This document shows, piece after piece, positions 5,345 to 60,919 of a stretch of 64,000 bases of DNA (the stretch's first letter is position 1; the number at the start of each line of letters is the position of its first letter). Below the pieces are notes generated by a model, which was given only the letters and a program-made list of their open reading frames with translations, was not told the origin of the DNA and did no database searches. The stretch spans positions 4,499,922 through 4,563,921 of the forward strand of contig OY970367.1 in the NCBI GenBank assembly GCA_963718635.1, in the 5' to 3' direction. The position numbers were made by a program, and so were the translations under genes. The DNA is from an uncultured Planctomycetota bacterium (GTDB lineage: Bacteria; Planctomycetota; Planctomycetia; Gemmatales; Gemmataceae).

Positions 5345-5620
5345 ATGTTTTACCAGACAGAAGCAAAAGCCCAGGGCTGGCGAGCGGTTGCCATTTTTGA
5401 TGATGAACGCGGCGAAGCCTTGATCCTTCTCGGCCGTTCATCGACGCAGGTTCGGACCGGCTATATCGAGTCGTATACGGATCTGCTCGACGAAGAAGAA
5501 CGCGAGCACGTTCAAACGATTGCTTTGCAACGTTGGCAGGGCGCGCCGGATGCCGGTCGTTGGATGCACCAGACCAATCTCAAAGTTCCGAGCTCGGCTA
5601 AGCTCCTGCGCGTTGCCTAA
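5345..5620 (+). CDS. Hypothetical small protein (91 aa)
   Basis: An AGGAGG RBS sits 6 nt upstream of the ATG at 5345 (caaggagggtccaacATG). No recognisable domain. Confidence 0.45.
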   Translation: MFYQTEAKAQGWRAVAIFDDERGEALILLGRSSTQVRTGYIESYTDLLDEEEREHVQTIALQRWQGAPDAGRWMHQTNLKVPSSAKLLRVA

Positions 5621-5667
5621 CGCCTAGTGCTTGTCGCCAACCAAGGTCTGCGCAAGCGTTCGAACTT

Positions 5668-6165
5668 ATGGCCGAAGACCTGCCGCCTCCTCTCCCGACT
5701 CCTGTTCCTCCGGCGGCAGTGCCTAATCCTCCGCCCGTTGACCCCTGGCCGAGAAACGGGCCGCTCATCGGTACGGTATTCGTCGCATCGGCGTTCGCAC
5801 TTGTTGGCGGCGGACTCATTGCTGTTGGATCCCAAAGTGCCGGTTATGGCGCGACCATGTTCGTGGCGCTGCCAATCGCTACAGGCTTCACGGCCGCGTT
5901 ACTGATGAATGCCGGTCGGGCCGTCCTTTGGGCGAACATCATTACGATCGTGCTCTGCTCGGCGGCGTTGCTTGTCACCGGGCTCGAAGGCATCGTCTGC
6001 GTCTGCATGGCAGCGCCTCTCTTTTTCGTCGGCACGGCGATCGGCGCCGGGTTGGCTGCAATGCTGAAATTGTGGGTTAAGGAACTGCGCCAAGTTGGCG
6101 ATCTTTCCTTTCATCAGCGCTCTGCTCGTCTTTGGGGTCGGCGCGGCCGAGGATCGATTGGTTGA
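5668..6165 (+). CDS. Proline-rich N-terminus + polytopic membrane segment; likely the N-terminal part of one gene that continues in the next ORF after a frameshift
   Basis: PPPLPTPVPPAAVPNPPPVDP followed by 3-4 hydrophobic helices. The C-terminal ~25 aa look like out-of-frame junk (HQRSARLWGRRGRGSIG). It overlaps the next ORF in the +1 frame. Confidence 0.4.
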   Translation: MAEDLPPPLPTPVPPAAVPNPPPVDPWPRNGPLIGTVFVASAFALVGGGLIAVGSQSAGYGATMFVALPIATGFTAALLMNAGRAVLWANIITIVLCSAALLVTGLEGIVCVCMAAPLFFVGTAIGAGLAAMLKLWVKELRQVGDLSFHQRSARLWGRRGRGSIG

Positions 6166-6637
6166 TCCGAAGCGCACGGAGAGCATCACTTCGGCCGTCA
6201 CGTTCCGCGCAACGCCGGAGCAGATGTGGAACATGATCGTGGCCTTGGACGAGGTTTCGAGCAAGAAGCCTTTGCTGCTGAGAATCGGGCTGCCGATTCC
6301 CAAAAGCTGTACGCTCGAAGGAAGCGGCGTGGGCGCCAAGCGCATTTGTCATTTTGATTCGGGAGTGCTCGAAGAGCGCATCACCGCTTGGGATCCGCCC
6401 CGCTATCTCGAGATGAAAATCGTCATGTCAACGCTTCCCGGACGCCATTGGCTAGGCTTTGAAAGCGCATCCTATCGAATCGAAGATGCGGGACACGGCG
6501 AAGTTCGTTTGACCCGGACAACCACGATCAGTTCTCAACTTCGACCTGCGGACTATTGGCGTCCTCTCGAAACCTGGGGAGTCGAATCGGAGCATCGGTA
6601 TTTGTTTGAAAGCTTAAGAACAAAAGTATACCCCTGA
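6095..6637 (+). CDS. SRPBCC-superfamily (polyketide cyclase/AHSA1-like) domain protein; probably fused to the upstream membrane ORF via a frameshift near 6090
   Basis: Beta-grip fold pattern (ATPEQMWNMIVALDEVS..., HFDSGVLEERITAWDPPRYLEMKIV...). The N-terminal hydrophobic segment MAIFPFISALLVFGVGAA continues the TM region of the preceding ORF. Confidence 0.55.
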   Translation: MAIFPFISALLVFGVGAAEDRLVDPKRTESITSAVTFRATPEQMWNMIVALDEVSSKKPLLLRIGLPIPKSCTLEGSGVGAKRICHFDSGVLEERITAWDPPRYLEMKIVMSTLPGRHWLGFESASYRIEDAGHGEVRLTRTTTISSQLRPADYWRPLETWGVESEHRYLFESLRTKVYP

Positions 6638-6861
6638 GGCCCACCGATACTTCTGTTTATGAAGACCCCGACAAAAAGATTTGGGACAAAAAAAAAGAAC
6701 ATTTGAAGTGGGCCGGAGTGCTCCAGAAATCCAATTTTATCCGTTTGAACTCTCGGCCAATAAGAGGTTGCCCAAAGAACTTCGCGGATTGACGACAGCT
6801 TGCTCGACCACGATCCGCTATGGCGGGATGTTTCGAAAATCGCGGGGATTTGTGCGTCTGC

Positions 6862-8059: not shown

Positions 8060-8770
8060 TTATTTTTTGTCGGCCAGCAGCATCTTTGCTTTTGAGGGAT
8101 GCCGATCGACGTAGCGAGCGATGCCGGAGAAGAATAGCAGCATCTGCTCTGCGCCCTCCTGGGCGAGGCGCGGGGCCGCCGGGCCAATCAGACGCATTAC
8201 CAGTGCAGCCGTGCGGCTGTCCGTTTGCAGAAAGACTTCAACCTGATGGCGGATCAAAGGCTCGCCGTCTTCGTCCTTGACCACTCCGTGACGCAAAATT
8301 GCTACGGCTTTCACGGGAACGAGCGGCAGCAGTCGGCCAGGGCGGACCTTTCCCTCGGCATACCAGATTCGGCCTTCGCCATTCTGTGCGACGGCACTCC
8401 AGGTAAGTTCGCTGCCTTGCTCATCTTTCCAGGTGAACTTGCCGTCTTTCGATGCCGTGATGTCAATCGCGGCAACTTTAAGACGTTGCCAGGCCAGGCA
8501 AACCCGTTCGGGATGATCGAGCAGCCAAAGATAGCTTTCGGCGGTTGAAGCGAATTCTTCAGGAGGCGCCATGGCCGTTAACGTTGGCGCCTGCATAACT
8601 TTCGTGAGATTATCGCGGACGGTCGCGGGAACATTGGCAAGCGCAATCGGCAACTTATCAGAAGCTGAAGCGTACGAGCGTACCGGAAGAGCTAACTCCT
8701 GAGCCGAGGCCGCCTTGAGACAACCAGCGACAACTGTCAAAGCCAACAGCAGGGAACCGGTGCGATTCAT
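8060..8770 (-). CDS. Secreted hypothetical protein
   Basis: I place the start at the internal Met (MNRTGSLLLALTVVAGCLKAASA, a signal peptide). The longer upstream extension is rich in basic residues and looks like junk. Confidence 0.5.
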   Translation of the reverse strand: MNRTGSLLLALTVVAGCLKAASAQELALPVRSYASASDKLPIALANVPATVRDNLTKVMQAPTLTAMAPPEEFASTAESYLWLLDHPERVCLAWQRLKVAAIDITASKDGKFTWKDEQGSELTWSAVAQNGEGRIWYAEGKVRPGRLLPLVPVKAVAILRHGVVKDEDGEPLIRHQVEVFLQTDSRTAALVMRLIGPAAPRLAQEGAEQMLLFFSGIARYVDRHPSKAKMLLADKK

Positions 8771-8936
8771 GGAACCCTCGGCAAACGGTCGCGGATGTTT
8801 ATCCTCTCTTAGATCGAATGGGCAACCCCTGTAACGTGAATGATTCTGAGTCAACAACTTCGGACAACTTGGATTCCGTGTTAGCGCCTGCGGCCGTGTT
8901 CGATTGATTCGGCGACAGTTACGGTCAGCGGTTAAG

Positions 8937-9764
8937 CTAGTCCGTCGCGCTGCTTGCCTCAAGTTGCCGGGCGCGGAACATCCAGTACAGGACCGCTTTG
9001 ATTTCAAACGGCTTCATGTCGGGTTTCAGCGAAAGAATGCGGGCAATAATGCCCGTCAGATGAGGGGTCGCCCAACTCGTTGCCGGCTCCTGACTGAAGG
9101 GGCCAAGATAGCCGCGGCTGTGTGCTTGAAACTCGACTGTTTCTCGCAGGAGATAAGCAAATTGCAAGGGGTCGGCAAAGAGAGCCTTATCCACTGAAAG
9201 CAGAGTAGTTGCAAAGGCGGCCGGATAACTGCGGGTTAGGGGATGGTCGTTATGAGCCGCAGCGACAATTACTACATCCTTGAAGTAAGCCTGCTCGATC
9301 GCTCGTTGAAAGAGCACGCGCTTCTGCATCTGCACCATTCGGTTTTCGGGAACGCCGAGCGATAGGTTGACCACCTTGCATTTCCAGACGTCAACCGCAT
9401 GCTGGATCGCGCGAATGACCGTCTCGACTTCCGAAGTTCCCGCAGCGCCAAAAACGTCTGCGCTAAACAGGCGTGCTCGCGGCGCCAAACGCAGAATGAT
9501 GTCGGCGACCGTAGTGCCGTGCGGCGACGATTGCTTCCCCCCATCGGGGAGCGGGTCGGGAGATTCAGCGCGGAAGATAGCGCCCTCAATGGGATATATT
9601 GCGTGGTGAGCGTCTTCAAACCTCGCTTCGATAACCGCACGTTCAACGCCGCTGTCGATCAATGCAATGCGAACGCCTTCGCCGGTGGCGCGCTCATTGC
9701 GCAGCAGGCGGTCGGGCGTCAGCATGGCAATCAGATCGTCAAACACATTGTTGGTTTGGCTCAT
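8937..9764 (-). CDS. S8-family (subtilisin-like) serine peptidase, no signal peptide
   Basis: Catalytic triad blocks ALIDSGV (Asp), HGTTVADI (His) and SWATPHLTGI (Ser). The start is taken at MSQTNN, 12 nt downstream of the response-regulator stop. Confidence 0.75.
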   Translation of the reverse strand: MSQTNNVFDDLIAMLTPDRLLRNERATGEGVRIALIDSGVERAVIEARFEDAHHAIYPIEGAIFRAESPDPLPDGGKQSSPHGTTVADIILRLAPRARLFSADVFGAAGTSEVETVIRAIQHAVDVWKCKVVNLSLGVPENRMVQMQKRVLFQRAIEQAYFKDVVIVAAAHNDHPLTRSYPAAFATTLLSVDKALFADPLQFAYLLRETVEFQAHSRGYLGPFSQEPATSWATPHLTGIIARILSLKPDMKPFEIKAVLYWMFRARQLEASSATD

Positions 9765-9775
9765 GGAGACTTTTT

Positions 9776-14479: not shown

Positions 14480-15141
14480 TTGCCGGCGTATTGCTTAAAG
14501 GACAGGAAGGGATTGATCACGATGAAATCCGAGCCGAGCGATATACCGAGGCTCCACGTGCGCCCTTCCATCGAATCATTCGCTCGCATTGTGGTCGGCT
14601 ACCACGGGTGTACGGAAGCTTTCGCGAAGACGCTGCTTCTGAGAAAGAAACCGATCAATCAGTGGCTGCCGAGCACGAATGAATGGGACTGGCTGGGCAA
14701 TGGCATCTACTTCTGGGAACACGCCCCTGAGCGTGCGCTGCGATGGGCGCACGAGCGCTGCGCAAGAACTCGCTGGCGACCTGCTGTGCTCGGAGCCTAA
14801 TCCAACTCGGTCGTTGCTTCGATTTGCTCAATGAAAGCATTACCTCACTACTGCGTGATACTTATGATCAGACAGCCTTTTCATTCGCGGAATTGGGTGG
14901 CGAACTTCCTAAAAACACTGGCCGTGACTGGAAAATGCGGCATCTCGATCAACTTGTAATCAACCAATGCATCAATGGTTTACAAAAGGAAGGAAGAGAG
15001 TTTGATACGGTGCGAGGAGCTTTCCTGGAAGGCGAGCCGGTCTATCCAGGCGCTGGCTTTTCGAGCGGAAGCCATATCCAAATCGCCGCGCGAAATTCTG
15101 CTTGTATTCTCGGAGTCTTTTTGCCAAACTTACTTATATGA
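14480..15141 (+). pseudogene. Hypothetical protein split over two overlapping frames (apparent frameshift near 14750-14800)
   Basis: ORFs 14480..14800 and 14743..15141 overlap in different frames. No domain recognised. Confidence 0.3.
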
Positions 15142-21649: not shown

Positions 21650-22535
21650 TCTGCCGTTCAGGAAAGCGAGCGTCTTTCTAACTGCAGTTCTTCGAGCGAA
21701 GTTGCTGTGATTAGGTCTTCGCCGAGTCTTTCCAACTGTTCGACCGTCAACTTATTCAGGTATCGTTCTGTCTCATCACTCACATCTCCAAACCGCTTGT
21801 TCAACAACCGCCTGACGAAAGCATGATGACTCCTAAAGAACCCTTTCTCGATTCCCTCGTCCCTTCCTCTTTCTATCCCTTTTCGTAGCTAGTTTGCCCC
21901 AACATACGTGCCTCCTGATATTTTGGAGTCAGCGAGAGTTGATCGTACTCGTTCAAACTCAATCCTTCCAGAGGAAGGTAAGCCTCCACGCATTCGCAAA
22001 GAAGGAACCGGCGGGATGGATCGAGTGGCGAGTTGGCCAGTTTCAGAATCGCATCCGCCCTCATCCGCGCTCGTTCCTCTTCCGGCATTTTCATTAAAGC
22101 AGACAACGCGACGCCAAGCCAGTTATCACCTTCCAGATATATCCTAGCGTCCAATGCGGGCAGGCCAACATAAGGATAGCGAAATGCAAGTAGCGATTCT
22201 TCCCACAGCGATTCCTGATGTACGCTCCAGCCGATTCCCTCGAAACCAACGTGCAGGTAGAGCCCGATTGGAAACACGGGGAGGAGATGTTTGGCCCGTA
22301 TGGCAGAATAATACCCGCACATACTCTGCGGCACCGCGGCTACACTATCGCCCGATTCAACTTCGACGTGAACCAGGATCACGAAAGCTTCCGCTTCGCG
22401 CGGCGATGTCTGCACCGACTGCACCAACGAAATCTGCGCGATCAAGTCGAGATGCCTACGGCGGCCTTGAGGTGGGTCGAGAAACACTTCCTGCTCAAGC
22501 CAATCGATTTCGTCCAGTCGAACCGTTTCGACCAT
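21650..22535 (-). pseudogene. Rpn-family recombination-promoting nuclease / PD-(D/E)XK putative transposase (Transposase_31 + DUF4351), frameshifted
   Basis: The 21873..22535 ORF carries the core FVILVHVEVES...YYSAIRAKH. The DUF4351-like C-terminus (LLNKRFGDVSDETERYLNKLTVEQLERLGEDLITATSLEEL) continues in another frame from 21873 down to about 21690. Confidence 0.5.
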
Positions 22536-28777: not shown

Positions 28778-29614
28778 TTAGCGCCTCCAAAGGATAGCGT
28801 TGACTACCAGCCGGCGGAAGTCCTCATCCGCCCAATTGCGATGGCTATGGCCGCCAGTGAAACCGAACGATCGACCGCCATCCGGTCGCTCAAACGCCCA
28901 CGCCAAATGCTCTGGCCGGCCGGGGTACATCTTGGCGGCAGGAGTACCGCGAGAGTTGTCTGGAGGGATCGCGGTTAATATCGGGGTCACGTTTTTCATG
29001 TCTTCAACGAAGCGCATGTTGTAATACCACTCATCGCGGATGACGAAGGGTTTTACGCCGCGCGTGATCGAGTGTTTCGGCAATTCGCGGATGGACGCAT
29101 CCCAGTGCGGGTTGATGGAGAATCCGGCTTCATAATAACCGCCTAACCAGCCGAGCACCCGCTTGCCTGGTTCCTTGGGATACTCGACCGCATAATGGAT
29201 ATTGACGAAACCCGTTCCCTTGTCGAGCAGCTTTTGAATCACCTCCATGCGTTCGGGCTTGATGACCGGATGGCCGCCGCCGCCGTCCATGTAAAAGACG
29301 ACGGATGCAGCGCCATCGAAAATCTTTTCGTTCTTCGGCCAACCGTCGCGTGCCATCGTCACCCAGATATCCGGGGTCTGTTTCAGCAAATTCATTAGAA
29401 TCGCACAGCCTGCAAAAAACTCATGATCGCCAGGGCCATGGCTCTGCTTACCGGCAACGAGAACAATCTTTTTGCCTTTGAAGTCGGCCGGCGGATCGAC
29501 TTCCAACAGAACCTTTGATTGATCGAAAGGGTCGGCTGCCGGCGTCTCTGCTCCAGTGGCCGGGCGGCAGAGGCTGAGCAGCGCGAAGGGGAGCATTAGG
29601 AAAAGGGAACGCAT
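28778..29614 (-). CDS. Secreted ThuA-like (class-I glutamine-amidotransferase-like fold) protein
   Basis: Signal peptide MRSLFLMLPFALLSLCRPATGA. ThuA-like blocks KIVLVAG..., HEFFAGCA, ...GGHSH. Confidence 0.55.
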   Translation of the reverse strand: MRSLFLMLPFALLSLCRPATGAETPAADPFDQSKVLLEVDPPADFKGKKIVLVAGKQSHGPGDHEFFAGCAILMNLLKQTPDIWVTMARDGWPKNEKIFDGAASVVFYMDGGGGHPVIKPERMEVIQKLLDKGTGFVNIHYAVEYPKEPGKRVLGWLGGYYEAGFSINPHWDASIRELPKHSITRGVKPFVIRDEWYYNMRFVEDMKNVTPILTAIPPDNSRGTPAAKMYPGRPEHLAWAFERPDGGRSFGFTGGHSHRNWADEDFRRLVVNAILWRR

Positions 29615-29709: not shown

Positions 29710-31740
29710 TTGAACGCCGTCCGAACCTCTCGGGTCCATTTTTTCATGCATCGCGAAGTCTCTGATGTCGACGATCTGTTCGGGCGAGCCGAAACTCTTG
29801 GCCTTTATCTGTTGACGGCCGGTCTCGCTCTGTTGATTGGCCGTGATCTCGCTCCATCGGTTTTGCCTTGGCTTGGGCTCGAGTCGATGTTTGCGGGGCG
29901 TGAACTCTTTGGATATCGCTATGCTCTTCTGGCGGCCATCATCGGCGGCGCTCGGATCCTTTTTCATTCGCTGGAGGCAATGTTCGAAGGCCGTTTCGTT
30001 GCGGAAATCGCCATCGCCGTCGCGGCTATCGGCGCCATTTTGTTGCGCGAGCCCTTGGTGGCTGCAGAAGTCATATTTATCGCTCAGCTCGGCGAATGCC
30101 TTGAGGCCTGGACCTTAGCCCGCGCTCAGCACGGCATCCGCAAACTGGTGGAAGTTTTTCCTCAGCGTTGCTGGTTGCTGCGCGATGGCCAAGAAGTTCG
30201 CGTTTTGATCAACGAAGTTCGCCGGGGCGACAAGGTTGTTGTCAAGCCGGGGGGCAAGATTCCGGTTGACGGAGTAGTGCTCGAAGGCGAGTCCTCCGTA
30301 GATGCCAGCGCGTTGACAGGCGAAAGTATCCCGCTCGATCGCGTTCCTGGCGATGCGGTCTTGGCAGGCAGCCTCAATCAATTCGGGCAACTGACGATTG
30401 AAGCGAAGAAGGTTGCGGAAGAGACAGTTGCCGGCCGGGCTATCCAATTGACCGCACAGGCCCTGCGGAATAAAGCGCCAATCGAACGAACGGTCGATCG
30501 CTATGCTTCCTGGTTTCTACCTGCGGTGCTAGCCGCCGCAATGCTGATTTTCTTGCTGAATGTCGTTTACCAAACGAGCCTCCGTCCGGCGGAAGTCCGC
30601 CTTTCTTTCAACGTAGCAGCCCGGCTTAGCCTTTATCCGGCGCTGGCGGTCCTAGTAGTGGCGTGCCCTTGCGCATTGGTATTAGCGACGCCAGCGGCCG
30701 TGATTGCTGCGCTCGGCCGTCTGGCCGGCACCGGCATCCTTATCAAAGGCAGCATCGCGCTGGAACGCTTGGCACAAGTTCAGGCATTTGCATTCGATAA
30801 AACGGGCACACTGACGGAAGGCAAGCTGGAGCTCGGCGACATCATTGCGTTCAACAATCTAACCGACAACGATATTCTTCGCACGGCAGCCTTGGCCGAG
30901 CAAGGGAGTGAGCATCCGCTTGGCAAGATGATCGTTGACGAAGCGCGTTCGCGCGTTGCTCATGAGAGCCGTCGCCAGATTTCAAGCTTTTCCCGGCGGA
31001 GGAGTCGGCGCGGATGATGATGGCGCCGCCATACTTGTCGGCACCCGCCGGCTTTTAGAAGAGCAGCATGTCGGAGTCTCCGCGTCCGCAATTGATGCCA
31101 TTGCCAGACTTGACGAAACAGGTCAAACGTCTCTGTTGGTCGCACGCAATGGGGTTCTGCTTGGCATCATCGGCGCTCGAGACCGCGTTTGCGCCGATGC
31201 GGCCGACGTGTTGCAGGAATTGCGCAACGCCGGAATCGAACAAATCACCATGTTGACCGGCGACCGTGCTTCCGTTGCCCGAACGGTCGGCGAACAACTT
31301 AAAATTGATGACATACGCGCCGAGCAGCTTCCTAATGAAAAAGCCGATTTAATAGCAGCCAATCATGCAAGAACATGCTACGTCGGCGACGGCATTAACG
31401 ATGCGCCAGCGCTGAGCTTGCGCCTCAGTGGGGATCGCTGTGGGCCGAGGTACCGAGCTGGCCGCAGCGTCGGGCGACATTGTCGTTCTCGGTGAACCTC
31501 TGCGCTATCTGCCTTTGCTCTTGCGCTTATCGCGCGAGACAATGCGGTTGATTCGCCAGAATATCCTTATCTTCGCATTCGGCGTGAACATCGTTGGCAT
31601 CGTCTTCACCGGCTTGCTTTGGCCGCTCTTCGCAACGTCACCCGAGCTTTACGACAAGGCCCCGCTGGTGGGCGTCATTTATCATCAGCTCGGTTCGCTG
31701 TTGGTCTTGTTCAATTCGATGCGGCTGCTCGCATTCGAAC
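29710..31740 (+). pseudogene. P1B-type (heavy-metal) P-type ATPase, interrupted by two frameshifts (~30950-31010 and ~31425)
   Basis: TGES, CPC (VACPCALVLATP), DKTGTLT, SEHPLGK, MLTGDRASVA and VGDGINDAPAL are all present, but spread over three frames (29710..31017, 30935..31495, 31428..). There is no stop between the ATPase C-terminal TM helices and the downstream SPFH domain. Confidence 0.7.
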
Positions 31741-32976
31741 GCCGTGCTCCTGAAACGTGGATCGAGTGGAAACTTCGCTATCGGCTATTCGAACTGTGGG
31801 CGGAACGCAATCTTGATGCTGATCGTTTGCTGCATGCTGCAGTCGATTATCGTAAATCCATTCTTATTGGAGTGGTTACCTTGCTCTTTGCCGGATGGAT
31901 CGCAAGCGGGACCACGGTTGTCGAAGCAGATGAACTCGCAGTCGTTCAACAGTTCGGGCAAATTCAGGACAATCTGAAGCCGGGGTTACATTGGTGTTGG
32001 CCTTGGCCAATTGATGTCGTTCGTAAGATCAAACCCGCTGAAATCAAAGTCGTGTCAATTGATTTTCGAGATCGGTACGCGGTTGATGGCGATCTCCAAA
32101 CATCGGTGGACTACGACGATACGACCTGGACAAGCAGTCACGGCGGAACGGAAGGACGGAACGCATCGCTCTTCACGGGCGACCGCAATCTTGTGGATGT
32201 CCGCGCCAGCGTTCAGTACACGATTACCGAGCCGAGAGCCTATCTGTTCGCGGCACGGCAGCCGCAAAACTTGATCCGCACGGCTGGCGAAGCCGTCCTG
32301 CGCGAATTCATTGGCAGCCACCCGTTCGTTGAACTGCTCACGACGCAACGGCTCGAAATGCAACGGAAAATTGCTGAAAAGCTCGAGGAGCAGCTTGCCG
32401 GTCTCAACGGCGACGGCATCGGCATCCACGTTGTGGGCGTAGTCATTCACGATCTCCATCCGCCGTTGCTCGTCGCGAAGGATTACTATCGTCTCGCCAA
32501 GGCGCTTCAGGAAAAAGAGCAACGCCGGCATCGTGCCCATGCGGAAGCGGCGCGTGATTAAAAGCCGTGCCATTGAGGATGAATACAAGCAATCGAGTAG
32601 CGCTCGCAGGTCCGCCAATGAAATCGTTGAAGATGCCCGTTCCAACAGCGCCGAACTTTTAGGTTGGCAGCGTGCTAGGCGAGAAGTGAGCGCCGCGCAG
32701 GAATGGGAGATGTTCGCACATTTTGCCCACCGACTCGAATCGGGAGCGGACATCGCCGTCGCCTACGCGGACGCTGTTCTGGAGGAACAGGCGCTGCTGT
32801 CGCTACGGCGTTCACTGATCGACTTCAACTTGTCCTGGACCGCCATCGGCGCCGTGCTTCAGGGTCGCGACAAGGTCATCATCGATGCGGAGCAACCGGG
32901 CGGAAAAATGCACTTGTTCTTATTTGACCCCGACTTGCTACGCCCAGGGCTAGTGTTCCCTTCGATTCAGAAATGA
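31740..32976 (+). pseudogene. HflK-like SPFH/band-7 protein, frameshifted (~32540); in-frame continuous with the ATPase tail
   Basis: TM ILIGVVTLLFAGWIASG then the SPFH core ...ELAVVQQFGQIQDNLKPGLHWCWPWPIDVV. The coiled-coil C-terminus continues in ORF 32533..32976. Confidence 0.6.
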
Positions 32977-35038: not shown

Positions 35039-35900
35039 TTACCCGTGATCTGTGCCGCCTTCAATTGGTTCGCCCAGGTCGTCGGCGATTTGTTTGAGGT
35101 CTTCGTAGATGGTGCCCATGCGCGCGGGGCGCTTCTCCGGTAGAAAGGCCAGACAGCTTTCAATCAGCTCGCCGAGTTCTTCGGGAACTTTCGGGTTCAG
35201 CTCGCACACGGGTTTGAGCATCGCTTTCCACGATTTCTCATTCAAGCGTAATTCGGGAACAGCGGCAACCGATGGTGGGAGTTTCAGTGTCGCCAACCGG
35301 TACATTGTTGCCCCGAGGTTGTAGATGTCCGTCTTCTCGTTGACGACTTTGCCGCGAACGGTTTCCGGCGCCATGTATTCGGGGGTGCCCTGGATGCGGT
35401 CACGCGGTTCGCCCTTCACATAGGCCAGGCCATAGTCGAGTATTTTAACCTCGCCGCGTTTGCCGAGCATAATGTTGTTCGGCTTCAAATCCGCATGACA
35501 GACCCTGCGTTGGTGCATATGCATAAGGCCAATGGTAATGCGCGCGAACACGGTCACGAGCTTATCCATGGCCATCGGCGGCAGCAGGTCGAGCGTTTTG
35601 CCGTTCACGTATTCGATCAGAAGATGGACCTTTCTAACGCGAAAGAACCAGTCCTTTTCCATTTCCAGACAATGAATTTTGATGAGATTGGGATGACTGA
35701 GCATCTGGGCAATGCGAAACTCATGGCGGGCCTGATCGAGAAACTTCTGTTCTTCGGCGCTTCGATCAGCACGACCTTGAGCGCGTATTCGCGTGAATCG
35801 GCCTGGCGGCGCACGTGTAGAATGGAAGAGTGGCGCCGGCGCCGAGCGTACCTAGAACGTTGTATTTGCCAATGGTATCAATGAGGGCCACGCGTCACCT
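35039..35900 (-). pseudogene. Ser/Thr protein kinase, N-lobe disrupted by two frameshifts
   Basis: The C-lobe is intact in one frame (HPNLIKI, HADLKPNNIML, DYGLA, GTPEYMAPE). The glycine loop LGTLGAGA and the REYALKVV (VAIK-like) block lie in two other frames within ~100 bp. Confidence 0.6.
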
Positions 35901-41734: not shown

Positions 41735-42362
41735 GTGAACATCCGGTTTTGCACCTTTGCCCTTTTGACCATTGCCTCTTTCGCAACATTTCAAACCTTT
41801 GCTTATGCCGATTCGCTTAAAGGCAAGCGCATCGCAATCCTCGTAGCCGATGGCTTCGAAGAAGCTGAGCTGATAGAGCCGCGTAAAGCGCTCGATGCAG
41901 GCTGGCGTTAAGACTTTCGTCGTCTCGCCCAACTCGAAAGAAGTAAAAGGTTGGGCCAGCACGGATTGGGGACAAAAGTTGCCGGTGGATGTTATTCTCG
42001 ATGATGCCCGCCCCGATCAATACGATGCGTTGCTGTTGCCCGGGGGTGTTATCAATCCCGATAAACTGCGTATCAATCCAAAAGCGGTTGCATTCGTTCG
42101 CGCCTTTTTCGATGCGGGCAAGCCGGTGGCAGCCATCTGTCACGGGCCTTGGACGCTCGTCGAAGCTGGCGTCGTGAAAGGGCGAAAAATGACCTCGTGG
42201 CCCTCCCTTCAAACTGACATCAAGAACGCCGGCGGCAATTGGGTGGATAGCGAAGTCGTTGAGGATCGTGGCTTAGTCACCAGTCGGAAGCCCGACGATA
42301 TTCCTGCGTTCAACAAAGAAATGTGTCGAGTATTCGCAACGGGCGCTCCGTCACCTAAGTGA
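41735..42362 (+). pseudogene. Secreted DJ-1/PfpI-family protein with a frameshift near 41900
   Basis: GTG start. Signal peptide NIRFCTFALLTIASFATFQTFAYA, then [29 protein letters not shown] followed by a stop. The rest (VKTFVVSP...[13 protein letters not shown], nucleophile Cys) continues in the +1 frame. Confidence 0.6.
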
Positions 42363-44714: not shown

Positions 44715-45073
44715 TCACGGCTTCAAAGGCGCATTCGGCCGGATAGTCTTGATGAGTATTCCCTTTAAGGATGACACCGCAGCGATTCCCGCATGAATGC
44801 GATTTGCCAAAGCTGTCGTATCGTCGTCCCGGGTGAAGGTGACAATACCTGCGTGATCCAAGATGCGACGGTGGAGTGAATGATAATGTTGCCGATTATT
44901 GGTGACAACCGCGCGGCTTAGTTCTACGGCTCGCGCTGAAACATCCGGGTCAGCTATCCCCTGGTTTGCCCTTCCATCATCCCAAGCACACGAAGAACGT
45001 CGTGCCCCAGTCGACGCAGTTCGCTGATTAATACAAGTGGCACGTTTTCATCTGCATATAGAGAAGCCATGAT
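44715..45073 (-). pseudogene. DUF5615 (PIN-like) protein, partner of DUF433; frameshifted
   Basis: MASLYADENVPLVLISELRRLGHDVLRV...stop. The rest (ADPDVSARAVELSRAVVTNNRQHY...HAGIVTF) lies in another frame. Confidence 0.5.
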
Positions 45074-45076
45074 CGA

Positions 45077-46381: not shown

Positions 46382-47283
46382 TCACTTGGTCGCCGTTAAA
46401 TCGACGAGCGCTTTGCTGGCGGATTTCTTCATCTTGGCGTCGATTTTGACTTCGATGCCTTCGGGGGTTTTCAAGGCGCCGACCATTTGCATGTCCAAGT
46501 TCATTTCCATCGTGCCGGTCTTGACCGAACCATCGATGCAGCCATCGAACTTGAACGTGACTTTCGCCATCGAACCGGGATTGAGTTCAATGGGCGTCGG
46601 GCCGGCGGCAATCTTGGTGAGCGCGAGGTTCAGTTCGATCTCGAATACGCCGAACTGTTTGCTGTCTTTCTTGTAGGCTTTGAGCAGCTTGCCGCTCGAA
46701 GTCGACTTTGCCGCGTCGATATCCATGTTGGCCGCTTTGGTGAAGTCTTTGGCGACGGCCGCGATATCCGGCGTCCAGCTTTCGCCCACCGCTACCGCAT
46801 TCTTCGGCAACACTAAGTCTTCAATCGCATCGTCTTCTTTTTTGGAGTTTTTGCCCTGGAATTCTTCGGAGAGGAAGCTGGCGTCATCACCGGTCAGTTC
46901 TTTGCCTGCAACCGTGAACGTATATTTGTCACCCTTCAATTCAATGACAACTTCTTTACCGATGAACGAGGGAACGATCTGCTTCCCCTGTTTAGTTAGC
47001 TCGGCTTTCTCGTAGGTCCGTTTCAGTTTGGTCGCCTTCTTGCCCGTAGCCTTTTCAACGACTTCTTCTTTGAACTGCGCTGGACGCGCGTCTTGTCCTC
47101 GTCCTTGGCTTGGGCTTGCCCCATAAACGAGAACGACATTTTCCCGGCCTCATTGTCCTTTTCAACGGCCTTGGTTACATCACCCTGCGCATCCTTCTTC
47201 AGCTTCAGTGTGAATTTCTCTTGAGCAGCGGCTGTGATCGCAAAGAAGGCAGCGACCAAGACAGGCAATACGAAACGTTTCAT
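46382..47283 (-). pseudogene. Secreted Lys/Glu-rich hypothetical protein, one frameshift near 47075
   Basis: Signal peptide MKRFVLPVLVAAFFAITAAAQE. The reading continues seamlessly in the other frame (…DARPAQFKEEVVEKATGKK...GDKYTFTVAGKELTGDD). Confidence 0.5.
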
Positions 47284-48716: not shown

Positions 48717-48722
48717 GAAGAG

Positions 48723-48788: not shown

Positions 48789-48814
48789 ATTCAGCGCGTT
48801 GCGGCTAACAGGTT

Positions 48815-51800
48815 TCAATGATTAAACAAAAACGCCGGGCTATTGATGAGGGCCCACATCAGGTCTTGGCCGCCGAGCACGCGCTTATCTCCGGGCAGGG
48901 CGGCATTGGCCGTTGCATTGCTGAGACGTTTATATTCCGCATCTTGATCGCGGAACAATTGCTGCAACTTAGCCTTTTGCTCTGCGCTTCGCTTATCGGC
49001 CGGGGTAGCGAGTAGCGCTGCGAGGTCTGCGGGTAAGGCCATTCCCAGTCGTGGGACGGCGTCGCCGGTGACGGCCAGCCGGAATTTGCCAAGATTATGT
49101 TCCTTGCCTGGGAACTGTTGGTCGAGCGTTACTGTCAGCTTGACGCCAAGATCGGTCTGTACGGGCTCTTTGAATTCGAACATGGCCGTCTGCGATTTGC
49201 CAAGCTGCGGCGAAATTGCCCAGCCAGTTGCCGGGTTGCCGTCGATCGCCTTATCCACCCCAAAAGTATCTTGGGAGAAGGTCGCCTGGGCTTTGTGTAA
49301 CACGACCGGCTTGCCGGGAGCGCCAAGCGGTTCGGCAATCACTTTAAACTCGCTCAAGACAAAGTTTCCGTTCGGTGCCCGGCCGGGTCCTTTGCTTGGC
49401 AATCGAGCGTCCATCAATGCCTCCAAACGAATGGCGGTGATTCGCTTCAATTTGGACGTGCCTTCGACGGTATAAAGTTCCGGGCTGCTGGATTCTCCAT
49501 GAACAAAAAGCGAACCATCTTTTTCAACCGTGATCGTCGTCCCTTTTTTGTTCTTGGCAAAAGCACGACCCTTATCGGGAGTCAAAGTCTCCCACTTGGG
49601 CGATTGATCGAGTTCTTTCTCCCATGCCGCCTGTTTGGTGGCCAATTGAGCCTCATAGATGGCCAAGGCCTCCTGACGTTTCTTCAGATCGGCGGCTAGG
49701 GCATCGTAATCGTCCTGGGCATCTTTTACGCGCCTTCAAGCCTAATTTCAACTCTTCGGGAGTTGGCAATCGGGAAAGCGTGGCCAGATAGATCTCTTCA
49801 ACGTACTTCGCATCATCTTTGATCGTGGCGGCCAGTTTCACCAATCGACCATTGGGGTCTTTGATGGCATCGGCCACAATCGGCCCGTTGATCAAATTGA
49901 GAATTGGACCGAGCATCAGCCCGCTGGAGCGCTCGCACTCACAGGCGCTTTTGCGCAGCGGCTTACCGAACAATTCGAGAAAGCCGCTCGGAAGATCGAC
50001 GCTGCCATCGAGAACTTGGGCAGCGCGTGCGCCTGGCGCTGAAGCCGGGGATCTTCGAGATTGAACCGGTGACGCGATAAATGGCATCATAAAGCGATTC
50101 GGCGGGCAACCGTCGGGCTAGGGCATGTGAGTAATTCGTTTCATCGCCGACGTTCCATTTGTTCGTTTTTATTGAAAGCTGATAAGTGCGCGACTTACAG
50201 ATGGTTTTCATCAACTGGCGTACGTCGAATTGACTAGCAACGAATTCCTCCGTCATTCGGTCCAACAGGGCGGCGTTGCTGGCCGGGTTCCCGGCTCGAA
50301 TATCATCGATCGGCTCGATAATGCCGATGCCCAGTAGGTAGCTCCAAATTCGGTTCACATAACTTTTAGCAAAATACGGATTCTCCTTTGAGGTGATCCA
50401 TTTGGCCAGCTGAACGCGACGGCTCTGAGCGCCGGCCGGCATGTCCTTATGTTCGAACGGGAACCTGGCCTTGGCCATCTCGCCGGTCCGTTCGTGCTTG
50501 ACCTCACCGGTGTTGGAATCGGCAATGATCTCGACCATCGGTACCGCGCCTTCGACCGCTGAGCCGCCTATGTTGCCCGGATATTTCGGGTCGCGCGTGC
50601 GCGTCACCTGGGCAAAGTACGAAGCAAGGCTGTAGTATTGGTCCTGCGTCCACCGTTCAAAGGGATGGTCATGGCATTTGTTGCAGTTGAAACGCACGGC
50701 CATGAATAAATGAGTGGTATTTTCCATTGCCGCATCGGGTGCGCGCAACACTTTGTAATAGGAGGCGGCGCCGGCCTGTGCATTCGAGCCTGAAGCCGTC
50801 AGGATGGAGTAAGCAAACTTGTCGTAGGGCATATTAGTCGAGACGGCCTGATAGATGTAATCGCGCAGCGCCTTCGCCCCGACATCGCCGAGGAACTTTC
50901 GGTTCACTTGCAGCATATCGGCCCATTTGTTCGTCCAATGTTCGATGAACGCCGGGCTTCCCACCAGGGTGTCGACCAGCTCGTCCCGTTTGACTCGGGT
51001 CGAACGTTGGTCGGCCAGAAAGGCCCGCACTTGTTCGGGCTCGGGAGGCAACCCAGTGAGATCGATATAAATGCGACGGATGAATTCGCTATCGTCGCAT
51101 AGGTCGCTGGGCAGCACTTTTACCTTTTTCAGCTTTTCGTAAACGAGGTCATCGATGTAACTGAACGATTCGGGCTGCTTCCATTCAAAGCCGGAGCGGT
51201 CGCCCATCACCATCAAGGTGCTGGCGGCATAGGCGCCTTCGTAGCGGGCCAAAATCGTCGCTTCGCCGCGGCGTACGGTTGTTACAACGCCGCCGCGATC
51301 AACGGTGGCGACTTCGGTATTGCTGCTATCGATAAAGGCCTCGGCGGTCACATCGCGCGTCGTCCCGTCCGCGTAAGTGGCCATTACTGCCATCTGTTGT
51401 TTTTGACCGAGCGAGGGAACGATTCGCCCCTTGGGAAGGACCTCTAAGCTCGTAACGCGTGCCGACTCCAGATCGAGCTTCACCCCCTGCGCGATCCACA
51501 TTTTGAGAAGTTCATAGGAGGGATCGCCCGGTTGACACAGAACGCCGCCGACGTGCGGAACCGCGCCGGATGTCTTCAATAACATCAGGCTACGCTCAGG
51601 GGCGGCCCGGTTAAAACGCCGGCCTTCGAGGTCGTCCGTCAGCGCACGGTGGTCGAAGATCGGGTCGTAGCCGCGCAGACTTAGTTTGAAGCCGTTCTTT
51701 CCTTCCAGCGATCCGTGGCAAGTGCCGGCATTGCAACCAAGCCGGGACATAGCGGGCATTACATCGCGAACATAACTGACGGCATAAGCGCCTTTTTGAC

Positions 51801-53391: not shown

Positions 53392-55328
53392 TTAGTCTAT
53401 GTAGAAAAATTCGCTTGCATTCAACAGGGCGAGGCACCATTCCACGACAGCGCTTTCGTTTGGTGACGAAACGCTCTTGCTCCCTTTGTTTCCGAGGGCG
53501 GTCGCCAAATCTTTTGGGTTCGCCGGGGTGAGAGCTTCTTCCCGTTTCGATAAGTAATCCCGCGCTGCCTGCCGTTCTTCGCTGGTGATAGATCGTTGGA
53601 ATGCAAGCAGCCAGCCTCGCGAAATCAAGGTTTCGCGCTCGGCGTTGCATTCGCGCAGCAACCGGCCCGCCATATAGCGAGCCTGTTCGATGGCGACTGG
53701 CCCGTTCAACATGGTCAACGCCTGCGAACTGACGACCGTGTTGTCGCGCCGGCCTTGGCTTTCAATCGGCAGCGACATGTTGAACGTTTCAAAAAAAGGC
53801 AACGTGATCGAACGGCGCACGACGAGATAGATGCCCCGCCGGTTGAACTGAGCCGGGTCGTCCGAGATTTTCCAGTTCTTATGGATCAGCGTATCGAGCG
53901 CCTTGGAGTCGATGGGAGGCACCACGGCGGGGCCGTACATTTCCAGGTTAAGCGTACCGCTGGCCGCGTGAAGGTGATCCCAAACAATCTCCGCTTCGAG
54001 ACGCCGGCGCGGGAAGCGCGAGAGCCATCGCGCATCGGGGTCGGATAGCGCTTGAGCGGGTGTGGCAGTCGCTGCCATTCGATAAGTGTTAGAGGCCATG
54101 ATCAGCCGATGCAGATGCTTCAGGCTCCAATTGTTTCTGACCAGTTCGCGCGAGGAAGTCGAGCAATTCGGGATGGGTTGGCGGCTCTCCTTGCAAGCCG
54201 AAATCGTTCGGCGTTCGCACGAGGCCATTGCCGAAGTGCCACTGCCAGACGCGGTTGGCAATCACGCGGGCGGTAAGCGGATTTTCCGATGAAGTCAGCC
54301 AGCGCGCCAGGTCCGACCGGCGTTGGCCGGATTCATTTTTTCGAGAAACGTCGAGCGCTTTGCCGCCGGGCAGCGACGTACAAAGAGCCGGCTCTGCGAC
54401 AGCGAGCGGAGCGTCGATTTCACCTCGCCTTAACAGGCGAACTTCACCAGTTTGAGGACGCGCAGTCAAGATCTTCGCCACACCGCTTTTGGTGTTGAAC
54501 ACCTTCGGCTCGCTAGCGGCGAAGATCGCTTGCAGCCCGAAGTAATCCTCCTGACTGACAGGGTCGTATTTATGGGCATGGCAGCGACGCAGCCGACAGT
54601 TAGGCCGAGAAAGGCGGCGCCGGTCGTGTCAGCCAGATCGGTAAGCCGCTGGTATTCGATCACCTTCGGCCGAGCGATGCCCCCTTCAAAGGCGAAGGGG
54701 CCCACGGTGGCAAAGCCGGTCGCCAGCTTGGCTTCTTCCGAATCGGGAAAAAGTTCATCGCCGGCGATCTGCTCTTTGATGAACTGGTCGAAAGGCTTGT
54801 CCGAATGGAATGAGCGGATCACATAATCGCGGTAGAGAAACGAATGGGGATAAAGCGTGTCGAGTTCGTAGCCCGAACTGTCCGCATAGCGCACGACATC
54901 GAGCCAATAGCGCGCGTAACGCTCGCCGTAGTGCGGGGACTCAAGCAGTTCATCAACCACGGTCTGCGAGTTGCCGGGACCTATCTCGGGCAGCGCTTGG
55001 AACGCAAGTATTGCTTCGGGAGTAGGCGGCAACCCTGTCAGATCAAAGTGAATGCGTCGATAGAAAGTCGTCCGATCGGCCGGAGGCGCGGGCGTCAGAT
55101 GGTTTTCCGTCAATTTGGCAAAGATAAAAGCATCAATCGGATTGCGCGCCAGGCTTTATCTTTGACAGGCGGGATAGCAGAGTCCGTGATCGGTTGAAAT
55201 GCCCAATGCCTTTTCTGCCGCTCTTTCAAATCTACCTTGCTGCCAGCCTCGGGGTCAGCCAAAGCCGTAACGGTCGACACCAACCAAAGAAGAACAATAA
55301 CGCTCGTTTTCATGAAGTCTCGCTGCAA
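53392..55328 (-). pseudogene. DUF1549/DUF1553 (PSD1-type, no PSCyt1 head) protein fragmented by three frameshifts
   Basis: Pieces in four ORFs: a signal peptide + KRHWAFQPI (55110..55328); FDLTGLPPTPE (54466..55113); LARWLTSSENPLTARVIANRVWQWHFGNGLV (54089..54502); the C-terminus ...EWCLALLNASEFFYID (53392..54261). Confidence 0.7.
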
Positions 55329-55662: not shown

Positions 55663-56995
55663 ATGCCAGACCCCTATCGTGCTACAGCGCCCCGCTCCTG
55701 GGGGAAACCTCTCTTGCTGCCGATCCTCGCGCTGATGGTCCCCCTTACCGGCTGTCGGCTTGGTCGCAGCACAGGTGCGCCCGTCGCCTTCTCCGCGACG
55801 ACTGAAGTAATCGTCCCGGCGGCTACCTCTGAAATCAAAGACTTCAACGAATGCCTTGCTTTGGCGATGGCAACGCATCCGCGACTTATCGCCACGCGTG
55901 CCTCGCTGGCAGCGTCTGAAGATGGCAAGCGCGCCTTGGACCGAATGCATCTGCCGGCTACGCTCGACCCGCAAATTCCTGTTCGGCGTCAGCAAGCAGC
56001 AGTAGGTTTAAATGCCCCCGTCGCAGGCTTGGCCCAAGCCGAGCTTGAAGCGGCTTACGCCGTTACGCGAACTTATGTCACGGTTCTTTATGCTCGCGAG
56101 CAAGAACGGCTGGCTCAAGGCGTCGTGGAACGCCTGAAAGCCGTGAATCAGGCCGCTTCCGAAGCATTGGAGGCCGGCGCCCGCGATGCCTCCGCCGCCG
56201 ACGTAAAGCGGACGCTCGTCTATGCCCGGCTCGCGGAGACGAAACGAATCCAGGCGACGCAAGGCGTCAAGCGGGCGCTAGTCGCCTTGCGCGAGGCCTC
56301 TGGACTCGGAGCGGAGACCATTCTCGATGTGAAAGGCGATCGCCTGTCGATCCCTGACACGCGACCCAATCGGGATGAGGTTCTGGCCGGTGCTTTAGCG
56401 AAGCGCGGCGAAATCATTCAGACTAAAGTGTTCGCGCAAGTCGCCTGCCTTGAAGTCGAAGCTCAAGGCACAAGTCGCAGTCAACGCATGCCGACGTTTG
56501 CCTCCGGGACGGATATTCACGCTCAACAAGTTCCTCAGGGCGCAAACGGAACCGATTATCGTCCCGCCGGCATCAATCCCGAAATGCCAACCATGTTAGT
56601 CGGCTCGCGGGCAGAGCGAGTCAAACATGCCGGCACGCTTACGCGCTCGAGCCCAGGCTGTGGTCGAATCGACGCAGAAGCTCATTACGCTCGAATGCGA
56701 GGATGCCTTTTTGCGCTGGGAAGAAGCATACGGGCAAACGACCTTGGCCCGTGAGGCAGCTGAGGCCGGCGAAAAATTAGCCGACGAACTCCGCAAGCAG
56801 TTTACCTCTGGCTTAAAAGTAAAAGTGGATGAGGTAATCACCGCGCGGGTGCTCGCATCACAAGCCCGTTCCGAATACAACGAATTCGTCTATCGCCAAT
56901 TGATCGCCCTGGCCGATCTGGAACGCGTCTCCGGCGGCGCGTTTCGATCCGGCCTGCAGGAGATGCTGCAAGCGGCTTCGACGACGAAGGAGTGA
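55663..56995 (+). pseudogene. TolC-like outer-membrane efflux lipoprotein, frameshift near 56640
   Basis: Lipobox LTGC. OEP-type helical repeats. The C-terminal part continues in ORF 56627..56995 (AQAVVESTQKLITLECEDAFLRWEEAYG...). Confidence 0.55.
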
Positions 56996-58828: not shown

Positions 58829-58946
58829 TCGCGACATACCAGCTTAGGCGCGCTAAAAATGGAAAATGAAAAAAGCTGGCGGCAAGGACGTGAAGTCCTT
58901 GCCGCCAGCTTTACGCTTCAAATGGTCTCGCAACTCGCGGCAGCCC

Positions 58947-59570
58947 TTAGAAAGGGTTGCCGGGGCCGCTGACGCTGATGACCGGCTTGGGCAGAGCAAC
59001 CGGGCTCGCTGCTGGCCGGCCTTGGTTCTGTGTCAGGCCGCCCTTCGGCTTGAAATCTTTTTCTTTCGGCAATTCGTTCGGCATTTCCTTAGCTTTCGGC
59101 GTGGGCAGCGATTCTGCCGGAGCGCCAGGAGCAGCTGAAGTGGTGCCGCAGCTCGAGCAAACGGTTTCGCAGCCGCAGCTGCTGTGTTTGCTGAACTTGG
59201 ATTTCAAGCGAGACCAGAGGCCGACTCGGCCACTGCCGCAGGGGCTGCAAGTCGGCGCCGGAGCGCAAACCGGTGCAGCCTTGCAGACGGGCGCCGGGGG
59301 AGGCGGGGGTGGCGGCAGAGGCGCTGGCGCCGGAGCACAGGAAGCGACTGGAGCGCAGCCGCAGCCGGAACTCTTGTGGAAATTGGCGCGGAAGCGCGAC
59401 CATAGCCCATGCTTGCGGGCACAGGGGTCGTCGCAAACGGTGCCGCAGCCACCGCCGCATGAAGAACTGGTTGAGACCACGGCCGGAGCGGGCGCGGGAG
59501 CGTCCTTGGCGGGCACCGGATCGGCGCCGACCATCCAAGCCGAGGTCAGCATCATTATCGCGACATTCAC
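58947..59570 (-). CDS. Secreted cysteine- and proline-rich repetitive protein
   Basis: GGGAGG RBS with a GTG start. Signal-like MNVAIMMLTSAWMVGA. An internal duplicated module HGLWSRFRANFHKSSGCGC / GLWSRLKSKFSKHSSCGC, a PPPPPPP tract and many CxxC/CGC pairs. The opposite-strand ORF 58957..59913 is judged spurious. Confidence 0.5.
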   Translation of the reverse strand: MNVAIMMLTSAWMVGADPVPAKDAPAPAPAVVSTSSSCGGGCGTVCDDPCARKHGLWSRFRANFHKSSGCGCAPVASCAPAPAPLPPPPPPPAPVCKAAPVCAPAPTCSPCGSGRVGLWSRLKSKFSKHSSCGCETVCSSCGTTSAAPGAPAESLPTPKAKEMPNELPKEKDFKPKGGLTQNQGRPAASPVALPKPVISVSGPGNPF

Positions 59571-59972
59571 GGTAATTAACCTCCCGACGATGTTTAATTG
59601 TGGCGCCGGTCCGGGGCCGTCCTCTAGCCGGCACTCGATCGCTCGAGCCCGCCTGCGCCATGATTCGGGGTCGCCTCCTCGCAAGTGCCAGCGCTCTCCA
59701 GCGGAGATTGCCGACCTGCGCTTCTGTATAAGCGCCTTAGAGGTCCGAACTCTGTCCTCTTTCATCGGGATGATTGGCAGGCGCGCTTATCACGATCTCA
59801 AAGGAAAGCGCCTGAAATCGCGAAACTACCTCGCTTTCCATCTTTTGCAGCGATTGCTCGGATTTAGGAAAGCAGCGAAGGATAAGAAGGATTGCCGACC
59901 GGCGAAGAGTTGATGGTTGTAGCGATTGAGCGAGGCGCTCGCGCGACTCTTCACAAAGCTTGCGAATCGCGG

Positions 59973-60802
59973 CTAAACGGCGCGTCGATCAATGGCGGGG
60001 GTGCCGCCGGTGCGCGAAGCGACTAGAGCGGCAAAGCGATTAGCGAAATTGGCGCTTTCCGCGAGCGTTCGGCCTTCCAGAATCTGCGTAATAAGTGCGG
60101 CTGCGAACGAGTCACCCGCGCCAACCGTGTCGGCTACCTGAATGGGAATGCCAACAACCTCTACCCGCTCAATACCGCGCGTAATGACGCAACCTCGGCT
60201 GCCGCGGGTTTCGACTATCGTGCGATCTCCCGGCTCCTGTGCGATTAAGCCGGCTAGTTCGACCGCTTCGTGATCGTTCATTTTCAGCCAGTCGGCCGAC
60301 TCGACTAAGCGGCGAATTGTGGCCCGATGGACGAACGGCGGTCTCAGGTTGAAGTCGCAGATGCGGATGGCGCTTTTCGCCTGAGCGATAAATTGCAAAA
60401 TCGTAGACCGTGAAGGATCGTGACGAGATGCCAACGTGCCAAAACAGACCGCGGGCGCACACTGTGCCAATTCGGCCAACGGCTCACTCCATTCGAGATA
60501 ATCCCAAGCGACATTGTCGCAGATCGTATAACTCGGTTGGCCGGCCGAATCGACCTGCACTGTCACCGTGCCCGTCGGTCTCTTGGGATCAGTTTGAATA
60601 AATTGATCGGACATCCCAAGTCGACGTACCTCACGGCGCAACTCCCGACCTGGTTCATCGTCACCGACGCGGCTGACGATTACTGCGGAATGACCAAGTT
60701 GTAAGCAGTGAAAAGCAAAATTGAACGGCGCGCCGCCGGGCGCGGACCGCTTGGCAGTAGGTCCCAGAGGATTTCGCCAATGCCAATGATGGGATTGGGC
60801 AT
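59973..60802 (-). pseudogene. PfkB-family carbohydrate kinase (fructokinase/ribokinase-like), frameshift near 60740
   Basis: The C-terminal DTVGAGDSFAAALI motif is in ORF 59973..60641. The N-terminal MPNPIIGIGEILWDLLPSG lies in another frame (60680..60802). Confidence 0.6.
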
Positions 60803-60919
60803 TTGCCGGCTTTCAATTCGCGGACGTTCCCCCCACCCTGCCCTCCCCCGCAAAGCCGGGGGGAAGGGTCGGAAGGCCGATCTGCTCTTTTGCCAGAATC
60901 GGCGCACTCGCTTTGCCGA

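Follow-up and report, generated by a model that had tools for sequence, protein, structure and literature searches.

Most frame breaks in a 64-kb stretch of a planctomycete chromosome lie at GCGC and are probably residual sequencing errors

Nanopore sequencing errors that are linked to base modification recur at a locus, are not corrected by read pile-ups and persist in assemblies, as has been described for GCAGC/GCTGG in Listeria (PMC10687267). Strand-specific errors occur at methylated motifs, and C>T and G>A miscalls have been reported at modified bases (PMC11610603). Indel errors in homopolymers, in long-read or 454 data, produce 1-nt breaks over many genes in a contiguous assembly. Genome decay, of which Mycobacterium leprae and Sodalis with their many pseudogenes are examples, also leaves many disrupted genes, some with several lesions, beside intact core genes. 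Here we analysed 64,000 nt from an uncultured Planctomycetota bacterium (Gemmataceae; assembly GCA_963718635.1, contig OY970367.1, positions 4,499,922 to 4,563,921); this whole stretch is called the window below. Its G+C content is about 55%, it carries PSD1/DUF1549 genes typical of Planctomycetota, and its proteins, fragments of open reading frames (ORFs) included, are recorded in NCBI/ENA on one 6,489,944-bp contig, a closed chromosome. In the window, 20 frame breaks are spread over 13 genes. We observed these breaks, homologues of the broken genes that are single ORFs, a co-localisation of about 15 of the 20 breaks with the motif GCGC, and errors at the same motif in contigs derived from reads. 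We consider it likely that these roughly 15 breaks are residual consensus errors at GCGC, most plausibly caused by nanopore basecalling of a methylated motif, and that the others are a separate matter.

Stop-to-stop translation gave at least two open frames on the same strand at every listed locus, with overlaps of 13-232 nt between successive frames. The initial annotation had described proteins that continue in a neighbouring frame, and this was confirmed. It had counted about 18 breaks in at least 13 genes; all 18 were borne out and the genes number 13, but two breaks had been overlooked, one in a ThuA-like gene (28783-28786) and one in the N-terminal part of an Rpn-like gene (22505-22513). 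A P1B-ATPase gene with two breaks and an HflK-like gene, listed separately, proved to be a single gene for a 1076-aa ATPase-Band7 fusion. A six-frame coding-potential path over the window revealed no breaks beyond the 20 and no in-frame-stop lesion, so that the lesion spectrum consists of 20 frameshifts and zero nonsense changes. No nonsense mutations, truncations or insertion sequence (IS) insertions were seen in the 64 kb.

To locate the junctions, a homologue profile was used for each gene, and every 1-nt or 2-nt repair was scored across the overlap of the two frames (hidden Markov model repair scan). The interval of the SRPBCC break is the 3-bit scan interval. Coding-potential change points are coarse (up to 35 nt off) and were used only for the TolC-like gene, both breaks of the PSD1 paralogue and the DUF5615 gene. 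The breaks that we associate with GCGC are as follows.

6077..6101, + strand: transmembrane (TM) + SRPBCC gene; +1; GCGC at 6087-6090; motif-linked
28783..28786, - strand: ThuA-like gene; +1, AGCGCT became AGGCGCT; scan best at 28784-85; motif-linked
30946..30965, + strand: ATPase-Band7 gene, first break (ATPase1); 2-nt loss in TTCGCGCG(CG)TTG at 30949-30956; motif-linked
31414..31421, + strand: ATPase-Band7 gene, second break (ATPase2); +1, between GCGC at 31409 and 31420; motif-linked
32549..32559, + strand: ATPase-Band7 gene, third break ('HflK'); +1, GGCGCG^TGA; motif-linked
35827..35834, - strand: Ser/Thr kinase gene, first break (STK1); -1 in the glycine loop, GGCGCC AC_ TCT; GCGC at 35833; motif-linked
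35752..35772, - strand: Ser/Thr kinase gene, second break (STK2); -1, around GAA_GCGCC; GCGC at 35757; motif-linked, interval coarse
47076..47098, - strand: gene for a Lys-rich secreted protein; in ACGCGCGTCC; best fit 2 extra nt, alternative 1 lost nt; motif-linked
50025..50046, - strand: PSD1 paralogue, first break (PSD1a); +1, in AGCGCCAGGCGCACGCGC; motif-linked
49723..49733, - strand: PSD1 paralogue, second break (PSD1b); +1, in AAGGCGCGTAAAAG; site either GCGC or an A4 run; counted as motif-linked
55143..55148, - strand: DUF1549/1553 gene, first break (DUF1549a); -1, TGG_CGCGC; scan best at 55146-48; motif-linked
54586..54588, - strand: DUF1549/1553 gene, second break (DUF1549b); -1, TGCG_TCGC; scan interval of 3 nt
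54144..54152, - strand: DUF1549/1553 gene, third break (DUF1549c); 2-nt loss in CTCGCGCG(CG)AA; scan best at 54147-48; motif-linked
56600..56751, + strand: TolC-like gene; +1; exact position not fixed; compatible with GCGC at 56643-56646
60738..60741, - strand: PfkB kinase gene; -1, directly after CCGCGCC; GCGC at 60740; motif-linked

Nearly all of the 20 breaks are bridged by single-ORF homologues, Pfam coordinates or PDB alignments, and the Pfam coordinates are complementary across six of them; for the TolC-like gene and PSD1b, the support is limited to Pfam repeats, coding potential and a C-terminal motif. After repair, the genes have their best homologues at 63-64% identity (83% for the ThuA-like gene). 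With the ATPase-Band7 gene, more than 100 single-ORF proteins of 1050-1150 aa combine ATPase, Hydrolase and Band_7 domains (best identity 63%), and in tblastn the residues 1-409, 409-564, 564-945 and 947-1083 of homologues lay in four successive frames of the window. The Pfam Hydrolase domain is divided across a break into 2-44 and 44-187. At ATPase1, the frame switched at 30950-30954 in tblastn and a 2-nt model scored 252.8 bits versus 247.0 for the 1-nt model. At ATPase2, the junction was placed by tblastn and by the scan (best position 31414-15), and the conserved GDGINDAPALA was regained on repair. For the third break, tblastn switched frame at 32549-32554, the scan peaked at 32555-32557, and the length after repair matched that of the homologues. 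In the nearest relatives, the copies are intact and the ThuA, ATPase-Band7 and two Band7 genes stand in the same order.

The junctions in the other genes were placed by similar evidence. In the SRPBCC gene the scan peaked at 6086, and the homologues P0276-P0278 bridge the junction (TM + SRPBCC homologues have about 300 aa). Homologues of the ThuA-like gene (76-83% identity) align over residues 1-278 in one frame and over 280-314 in the following one, with NAILW[ST]AK at the junction. In the Ser/Thr kinase, the spacing of G-x-G-x-x-S-x-[VI] in PDB alignments leaves room for one residue at STK1, and the repaired protein gave an unbroken alignment to PDB kinases. The break in the Lys-rich protein gene (scan peak 47082-47090) is bridged by homologue P0272 (299 aa). 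Across PSD1a, the Pfam domain PSD1 is split into 1-149 and 164-239 and the coding potential switches at 50032-50040; the DUF1549 profile failed to place this junction, which was also placed by comparison with the intact PSD1 paralogue of the window. PSD1b follows from stop-bounded frame logic and a coding-potential switch at 49723-49734, and the C-terminal WALINSPAFLFNH motif occurs in the third fragment only. Single-ORF homologues of the DUF1549/1553 gene (about 630 aa, 63-64% identity) have W[VLMI]RNPIDAF at the first break and LLDYLA[RSH][ED]L at the third, where the 2-nt model reached 341.9 bits versus 335.0. All displayed homologues have GCARCH at the second break, and putting the alanine back gives TGCGCT, hence GCGC. 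The Pfam domains of this gene are cut into PSCyt2 1-182 and 183-207, and PSD1 1-59 and 59-244. The TolC-like gene has one OEP repeat in each frame and a coding-potential optimum at 56649 (range 56605-56654). In the PfkB kinase, PDB entry 2qhp has three residues from LPxG to GGAP, which confines the lost base to one codon, and the repaired protein aligned continuously to PDB entries. Altogether, a 2-nt change in (CG)n fitted better than a 1-nt change at three events (ATPase1, DUF1549c and the Lys-rich protein gene). An asymmetry between gene strand and indel sign vanished after the 2-nt events had been recognised.

The association with GCGC was tested on the 17 narrowly located breaks. GCGC was present inside 13 of the 17 junction intervals (≤25 nt), compared with 2.0 expected (Poisson-binomial P=4×10−10). 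In this and all other enrichment figures, DUF1549b was entered as a miss; its repair, which recreates GCGC, adds a 14th motif-associated break. Among 136 strand-symmetrised 4-mers, GCGC ranked first and CGCG second at 1.5×10−4. When only intervals set by the scan or by stop codons were used (n=11), GCGC was found in eight versus 1.3 expected (P=2.6×10−6). GCGC sites extended to (CG)n showed no significant preference. Most junctions lie outside homopolymers; A or T runs of ≥6 nt exist in the window, none of them at a located break. About 15 breaks thus depend in their position on an error motif, whereas five do not. The long-read indel error proposed in the initial annotation is supported by these results, but not in its homopolymer form, since the actual association, with GCGC, is more specific.

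Inconsistency of the reads at GCGC was judged by proxy, through four Logan contigs of run ERR11523670. They are from the same organism and together span 10,981 nt of the window, to which they are 99.6-99.9% identical.

Window 43516-46333: contig L019
Window 47088-49319: contig L020
Window 21118-25240: contig L021
Window 32650-34466: contig L023

The contigs differ from the window at 15 positions, of which 12 are inside GCGC and the other three 2-3 nt away (P about 1×10−15; GCGC covers 3.5% of positions), and the GCGC of the window is intact at every one of them. In the contigs, GCGC is changed to GTGC, GCAC, GCCC or CCGC, or 1-2 nt are deleted (e.g. CGCGCG to CGCG). G[C>T]GC and GC[G>A]C prevail among the substitutions, which thus concern mainly the inner cytosine of GCGC. 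All contig termini (8/8) are on GCGC, including the one of L020 at 47088, inside the junction of the Lys-rich protein gene. Away from GCGC, contigs and window are identical at every base over 11 kb, which again does not resemble homopolymer errors. The changes at GCGC split two genes that are intact in the window, for an aldo-keto reductase (80 + 268 aa) and Band7a (217 + 102 aa). We therefore conclude that the reads behind the Logan contigs err recurrently at GCGC and, because these errors split intact genes, that the same process makes frame breaks of this kind.

The following sequence of events would account for the motif-linked breaks. Native DNA, methylated at the inner cytosine of GCGC (HhaI-type), would have been sequenced on nanopores. 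The modified base would distort the signal, and the basecaller would err recurrently at GCGC. Consensus polishing would then remove a part of the errors, and 1-2-nt indels would remain in or within about 3 nt of GCGC, (CG)n runs included. A 5-methylcytosine of the HhaI type would fit the substitutions at the inner cytosine, and their pattern predicts that the organism methylates GCGC. We infer the platform, the methylation and, hence, that the window is wrong at the GCGC-linked sites. With the errors in Listeria (PMC10687267) and those at methylated motifs (PMC11610603), the window shares the recurrence at a short specific motif, the predominance of C>T/G>A and the survival through polishing; the inconsistent basecalls at the motif correspond here to a k-mer assembly that breaks or is miscalled at GCGC. 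It differs from these cases in the motif, GCGC, and in that platform and methylation are presumed. Taken together, the cause of about three quarters of the breaks is very probably an artefact of an already known kind, with a specific and testable signature.

Several points weigh against this explanation. Modification-linked errors are reported mainly as mismatches rather than indels (PMC10687267); the events considered here are indels, since only those break frames. That ERR11523670 and the assembly come from nanopores is, as said, something that we infer. The Logan contigs probably go back to the assembly's own reads and, hence, give no independent support, and none of the motif-linked junctions is spanned by them, so that read disagreement at these junctions is indirect. 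The intervals of STK1, STK2, PSD1a, PSD1b and PfkB were set by reading of alignments and not by the automatic scan. Moreover, the motif-linked breaks show mild clustering (9 genes versus 11.9 expected, P=0.04). The region 6.1-28.7 kb has zero GCGC-linked breaks despite containing roughly one in three of the GCGC sites in coding sequence, and the region from 28.7 to 60.8 kb has 14. Neither the clustering nor the empty stretch would be expected if GCGC sites failed purely at random; the uneven distribution suggests patchy polishing or coverage.

The initial annotation had named two possible causes, systematic indel error and ongoing pseudogenisation. Our results support the former for about 15 of 20 breaks and restrict the latter, as a possibility, to the five without a link to the motif. 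If all 20 breaks were genuine, accessory and paralogous genes would be undergoing active pseudogenisation while selection spares the housekeeping genes. In accordance with this, purM, acpS, bioDA, putA and the helicases are without break, as had been annotated, several genes have two or three breaks like older pseudogenes, and the breaks of the Rpn-like and DUF5615 genes are identical in the read-derived contigs. However, a neutral process would not put 13-14 of 17 lesions on one 4-nt motif, nor produce 20 frameshifts without a nonsense lesion, and genes with three indels are stop-free in their repaired frames. The window is unlike the decaying genomes of Mycobacterium leprae and Sodalis in that its lesions are of one type and tied to one motif. 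In the same read set, indels at GCGC also affect genes whose frames are whole in the window. The bias towards accessory or paralogous genes noted initially is statistically weak: 13 distinct genes were broken versus 15.2 expected by gene length (P=0.14), and a pre-chosen housekeeping set with about 22% of the coding GCGC sites would be missed by 15 events with a chance of about 0.02, or about 0.1 when clustered breaks are counted per gene. We regard genuine decay at all 20 sites as very unlikely. Comparison with orthologues, which had been proposed as a check, succeeded in so far as the homologues are single ORFs, but there was no sister genome close enough. In a scan of the GTDB species representatives with an intact BNR-like protein the closest relative had 34%, and a sister-genome comparison was therefore impossible.

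The link to a motif does not by itself tell a technical from a biological origin, and the indels at GCGC/(CG)n might be real, as hypermutable or phase-variable repeats, as methylation-targeted indel mutagenesis, or as programmed frameshifting or transcriptional slippage. At three events, a (CG)3-4 tract does look as if one CG unit had been added or lost, which slipped-strand mispairing could bring about. Yet these tracts, at most (CG)3-4 and at about three junctions, are far shorter than known contingency repeats, and most events alter just 1 nt next to a single GCGC. Shifts of both signs occur, the homologues are plain uninterrupted ORFs with no conserved slippery site, and the read-derived contigs directly show a technical process at work on GCGC. 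Real indels of any of these kinds seem extremely improbable to us, and we give hardly any credence to a planctomycete whose own methylated GCGC/(CG)n sites acquire small indels through a mutational process. Such an organism would have a large switchable (phase-variable) set of accessory genes or be in early genome decay.

Residual error at GCGC does not extend to the five remaining breaks, which lie 9 to >60 nt from any GCGC.

14798..14800, + strand: hypothetical gene (hyp14480); -1, GCC_TAATCC; nearest GCGC 35 nt off; not motif-linked
21879..21890, - strand: Rpn-like/DUF4351 gene, C-terminal break (Rpn_C); -1, GAAAAGGG_ATA; not motif-linked
22505..22513, - strand: Rpn-like gene, N-terminal break (Rpn_N); -1, ACGAA_ATC, probably A4 to A3; not motif-linked
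41900..41901, + strand: secreted DJ-1/PfpI gene; +1, GCAGCT became GCAGGCT (extra G); 9 nt from GCGC; not motif-linked
44960..44989, - strand: DUF5615 gene; -1, in a segment containing GGG and AAA runs; nearest GCGC 24 nt off; not motif-linked

For hyp14480 the scan interval was 3 nt, P0304 and other homologues (190 aa) bridge the junction, and the lost codon is V/I/L in the homologues. Rpn_C falls in a stop-bounded window of 13 nt, with DUF4351 in the downstream frame. Rpn_N was placed by the scan and by alignment to 15 metagenomic homologues (FDWTxIDWLEQE versus FDFKHIEWLNLE), which cover residues 1-310 as a single ORF. The DJ-1 domain is divided in Pfam into 1-25 and 25-163, and PDB entries 2vrn and 8r3n, with which the repaired protein aligns continuously, set the junction at ALDA|AGVKT; the DUF5615 domain is divided into 3-30 and 32-95. 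No second motif common to the five breaks survived multiple testing.

At three of these five breaks (Rpn_N and Rpn_C in L021, DUF5615 in L019), the Logan contigs match the window exactly, an agreement that is not independent, since run ERR11523670 probably represents the source reads of the assembly. The broken genes are a transposase-like DUF4351 gene (two breaks), the toxin-like partner of a DUF433 gene, a small conserved hypothetical gene and a secreted DJ-1 gene. We lean, with reservation, towards genuine frameshift pseudogenes, in short base runs, for these five breaks, which could still be systematic errors of another kind. In the latter case all 20 breaks would be artefacts, the five being long-read errors in short homopolymers or at low coverage. 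Rpn_N, Rpn_C and DUF5615 are indeed in or beside runs of 3-4 identical bases, and for a free-living bacterium, five true frameshifts per 55 kb of coding DNA would amount to a high pseudogene rate. However, the base runs are short, none exceeding 4 nt; the deletion in hyp14480 may lie outside any run; and the five breaks have no motif in common. Contigs and window also agree at every base outside GCGC, these three junctions included, and a transposase-like nuclease and the toxin of a toxin-antitoxin-like pair are genes of kinds that often decay. That the artefacts include all 20 breaks is therefore unlikely in our view, though less so than decay throughout.

Some of the loci have further features. 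The gene annotated as an Rpn-family nuclease (21661-22600, - strand) has only DUF4351 in Pfam and no match in NCBIfam, so that its membership of the Rpn family is not established; all its homologues begin with MDDHDQRFK. A DUF433 gene is directly upstream of the DUF5615 gene (44718-45330, - strand), and the two form a toxin-antitoxin-like pair of which the toxin-like partner is broken. The broken PSD1 paralogue (48818-49735, - strand) has an additional segment of ~290 residues that separates the PSD1 domain from the C-terminal motif; this segment has no Pfam match and is not present in the intact 850-aa PSD1 paralogue (60920-63472). At 8.0-9.8 kb an additional break was suspected and rejected, as there are two separate genes. 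One ORF in this region (8063-9833, - strand) is S8 peptidase-like, has ATSWATP where the serine motif GTSMAxP is usual, and overlaps the next ORF, in another frame, by 70 nt.

The gene for the ATPase-Band7 fusion (29740-32976, + strand) encodes, after repair, a heavy-metal-type P-type ATPase with a C-terminal Band_7/SPFH domain (about 1076 aa). It is followed by two further Band_7 genes (33022-34973, + strand) and preceded by the divergent ThuA-like gene (28654-29614, - strand). More than 100 planctomycete proteins share the fusion, and a relative with 63% identity has the same gene order. In this closest relative (L022, ena:ERZ26871208:contig_34016_np1212), the ThuA and ATPase-Band7 genes are intact. 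We take the suffix '_np1212' to be a NextPolish mark left after short-read polishing, which bears on that relative only.

If the GCGC-linked breaks are artefacts, the affected genes are to be read as intact. This concerns about nine genes of the window, among them those for the ATPase-Band7 fusion, the Ser/Thr kinase, the PSD1/DUF1549, TolC-like and ThuA proteins and the PfkB kinase. Should the window be representative, a considerable part of the 'pseudogenes' and split ORFs across the 6.5-Mb genome would be the same artefacts, which would inflate the gene count and the number of fragmentary 'hypothetical proteins'. Frameshift junctions that pile up on one short palindrome may serve as a flag for such artefacts that requires no reads. 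The relevance of the finding is for annotation rather than for biology: these loci, and probably many others in the genome, should not be annotated as pseudogenes.

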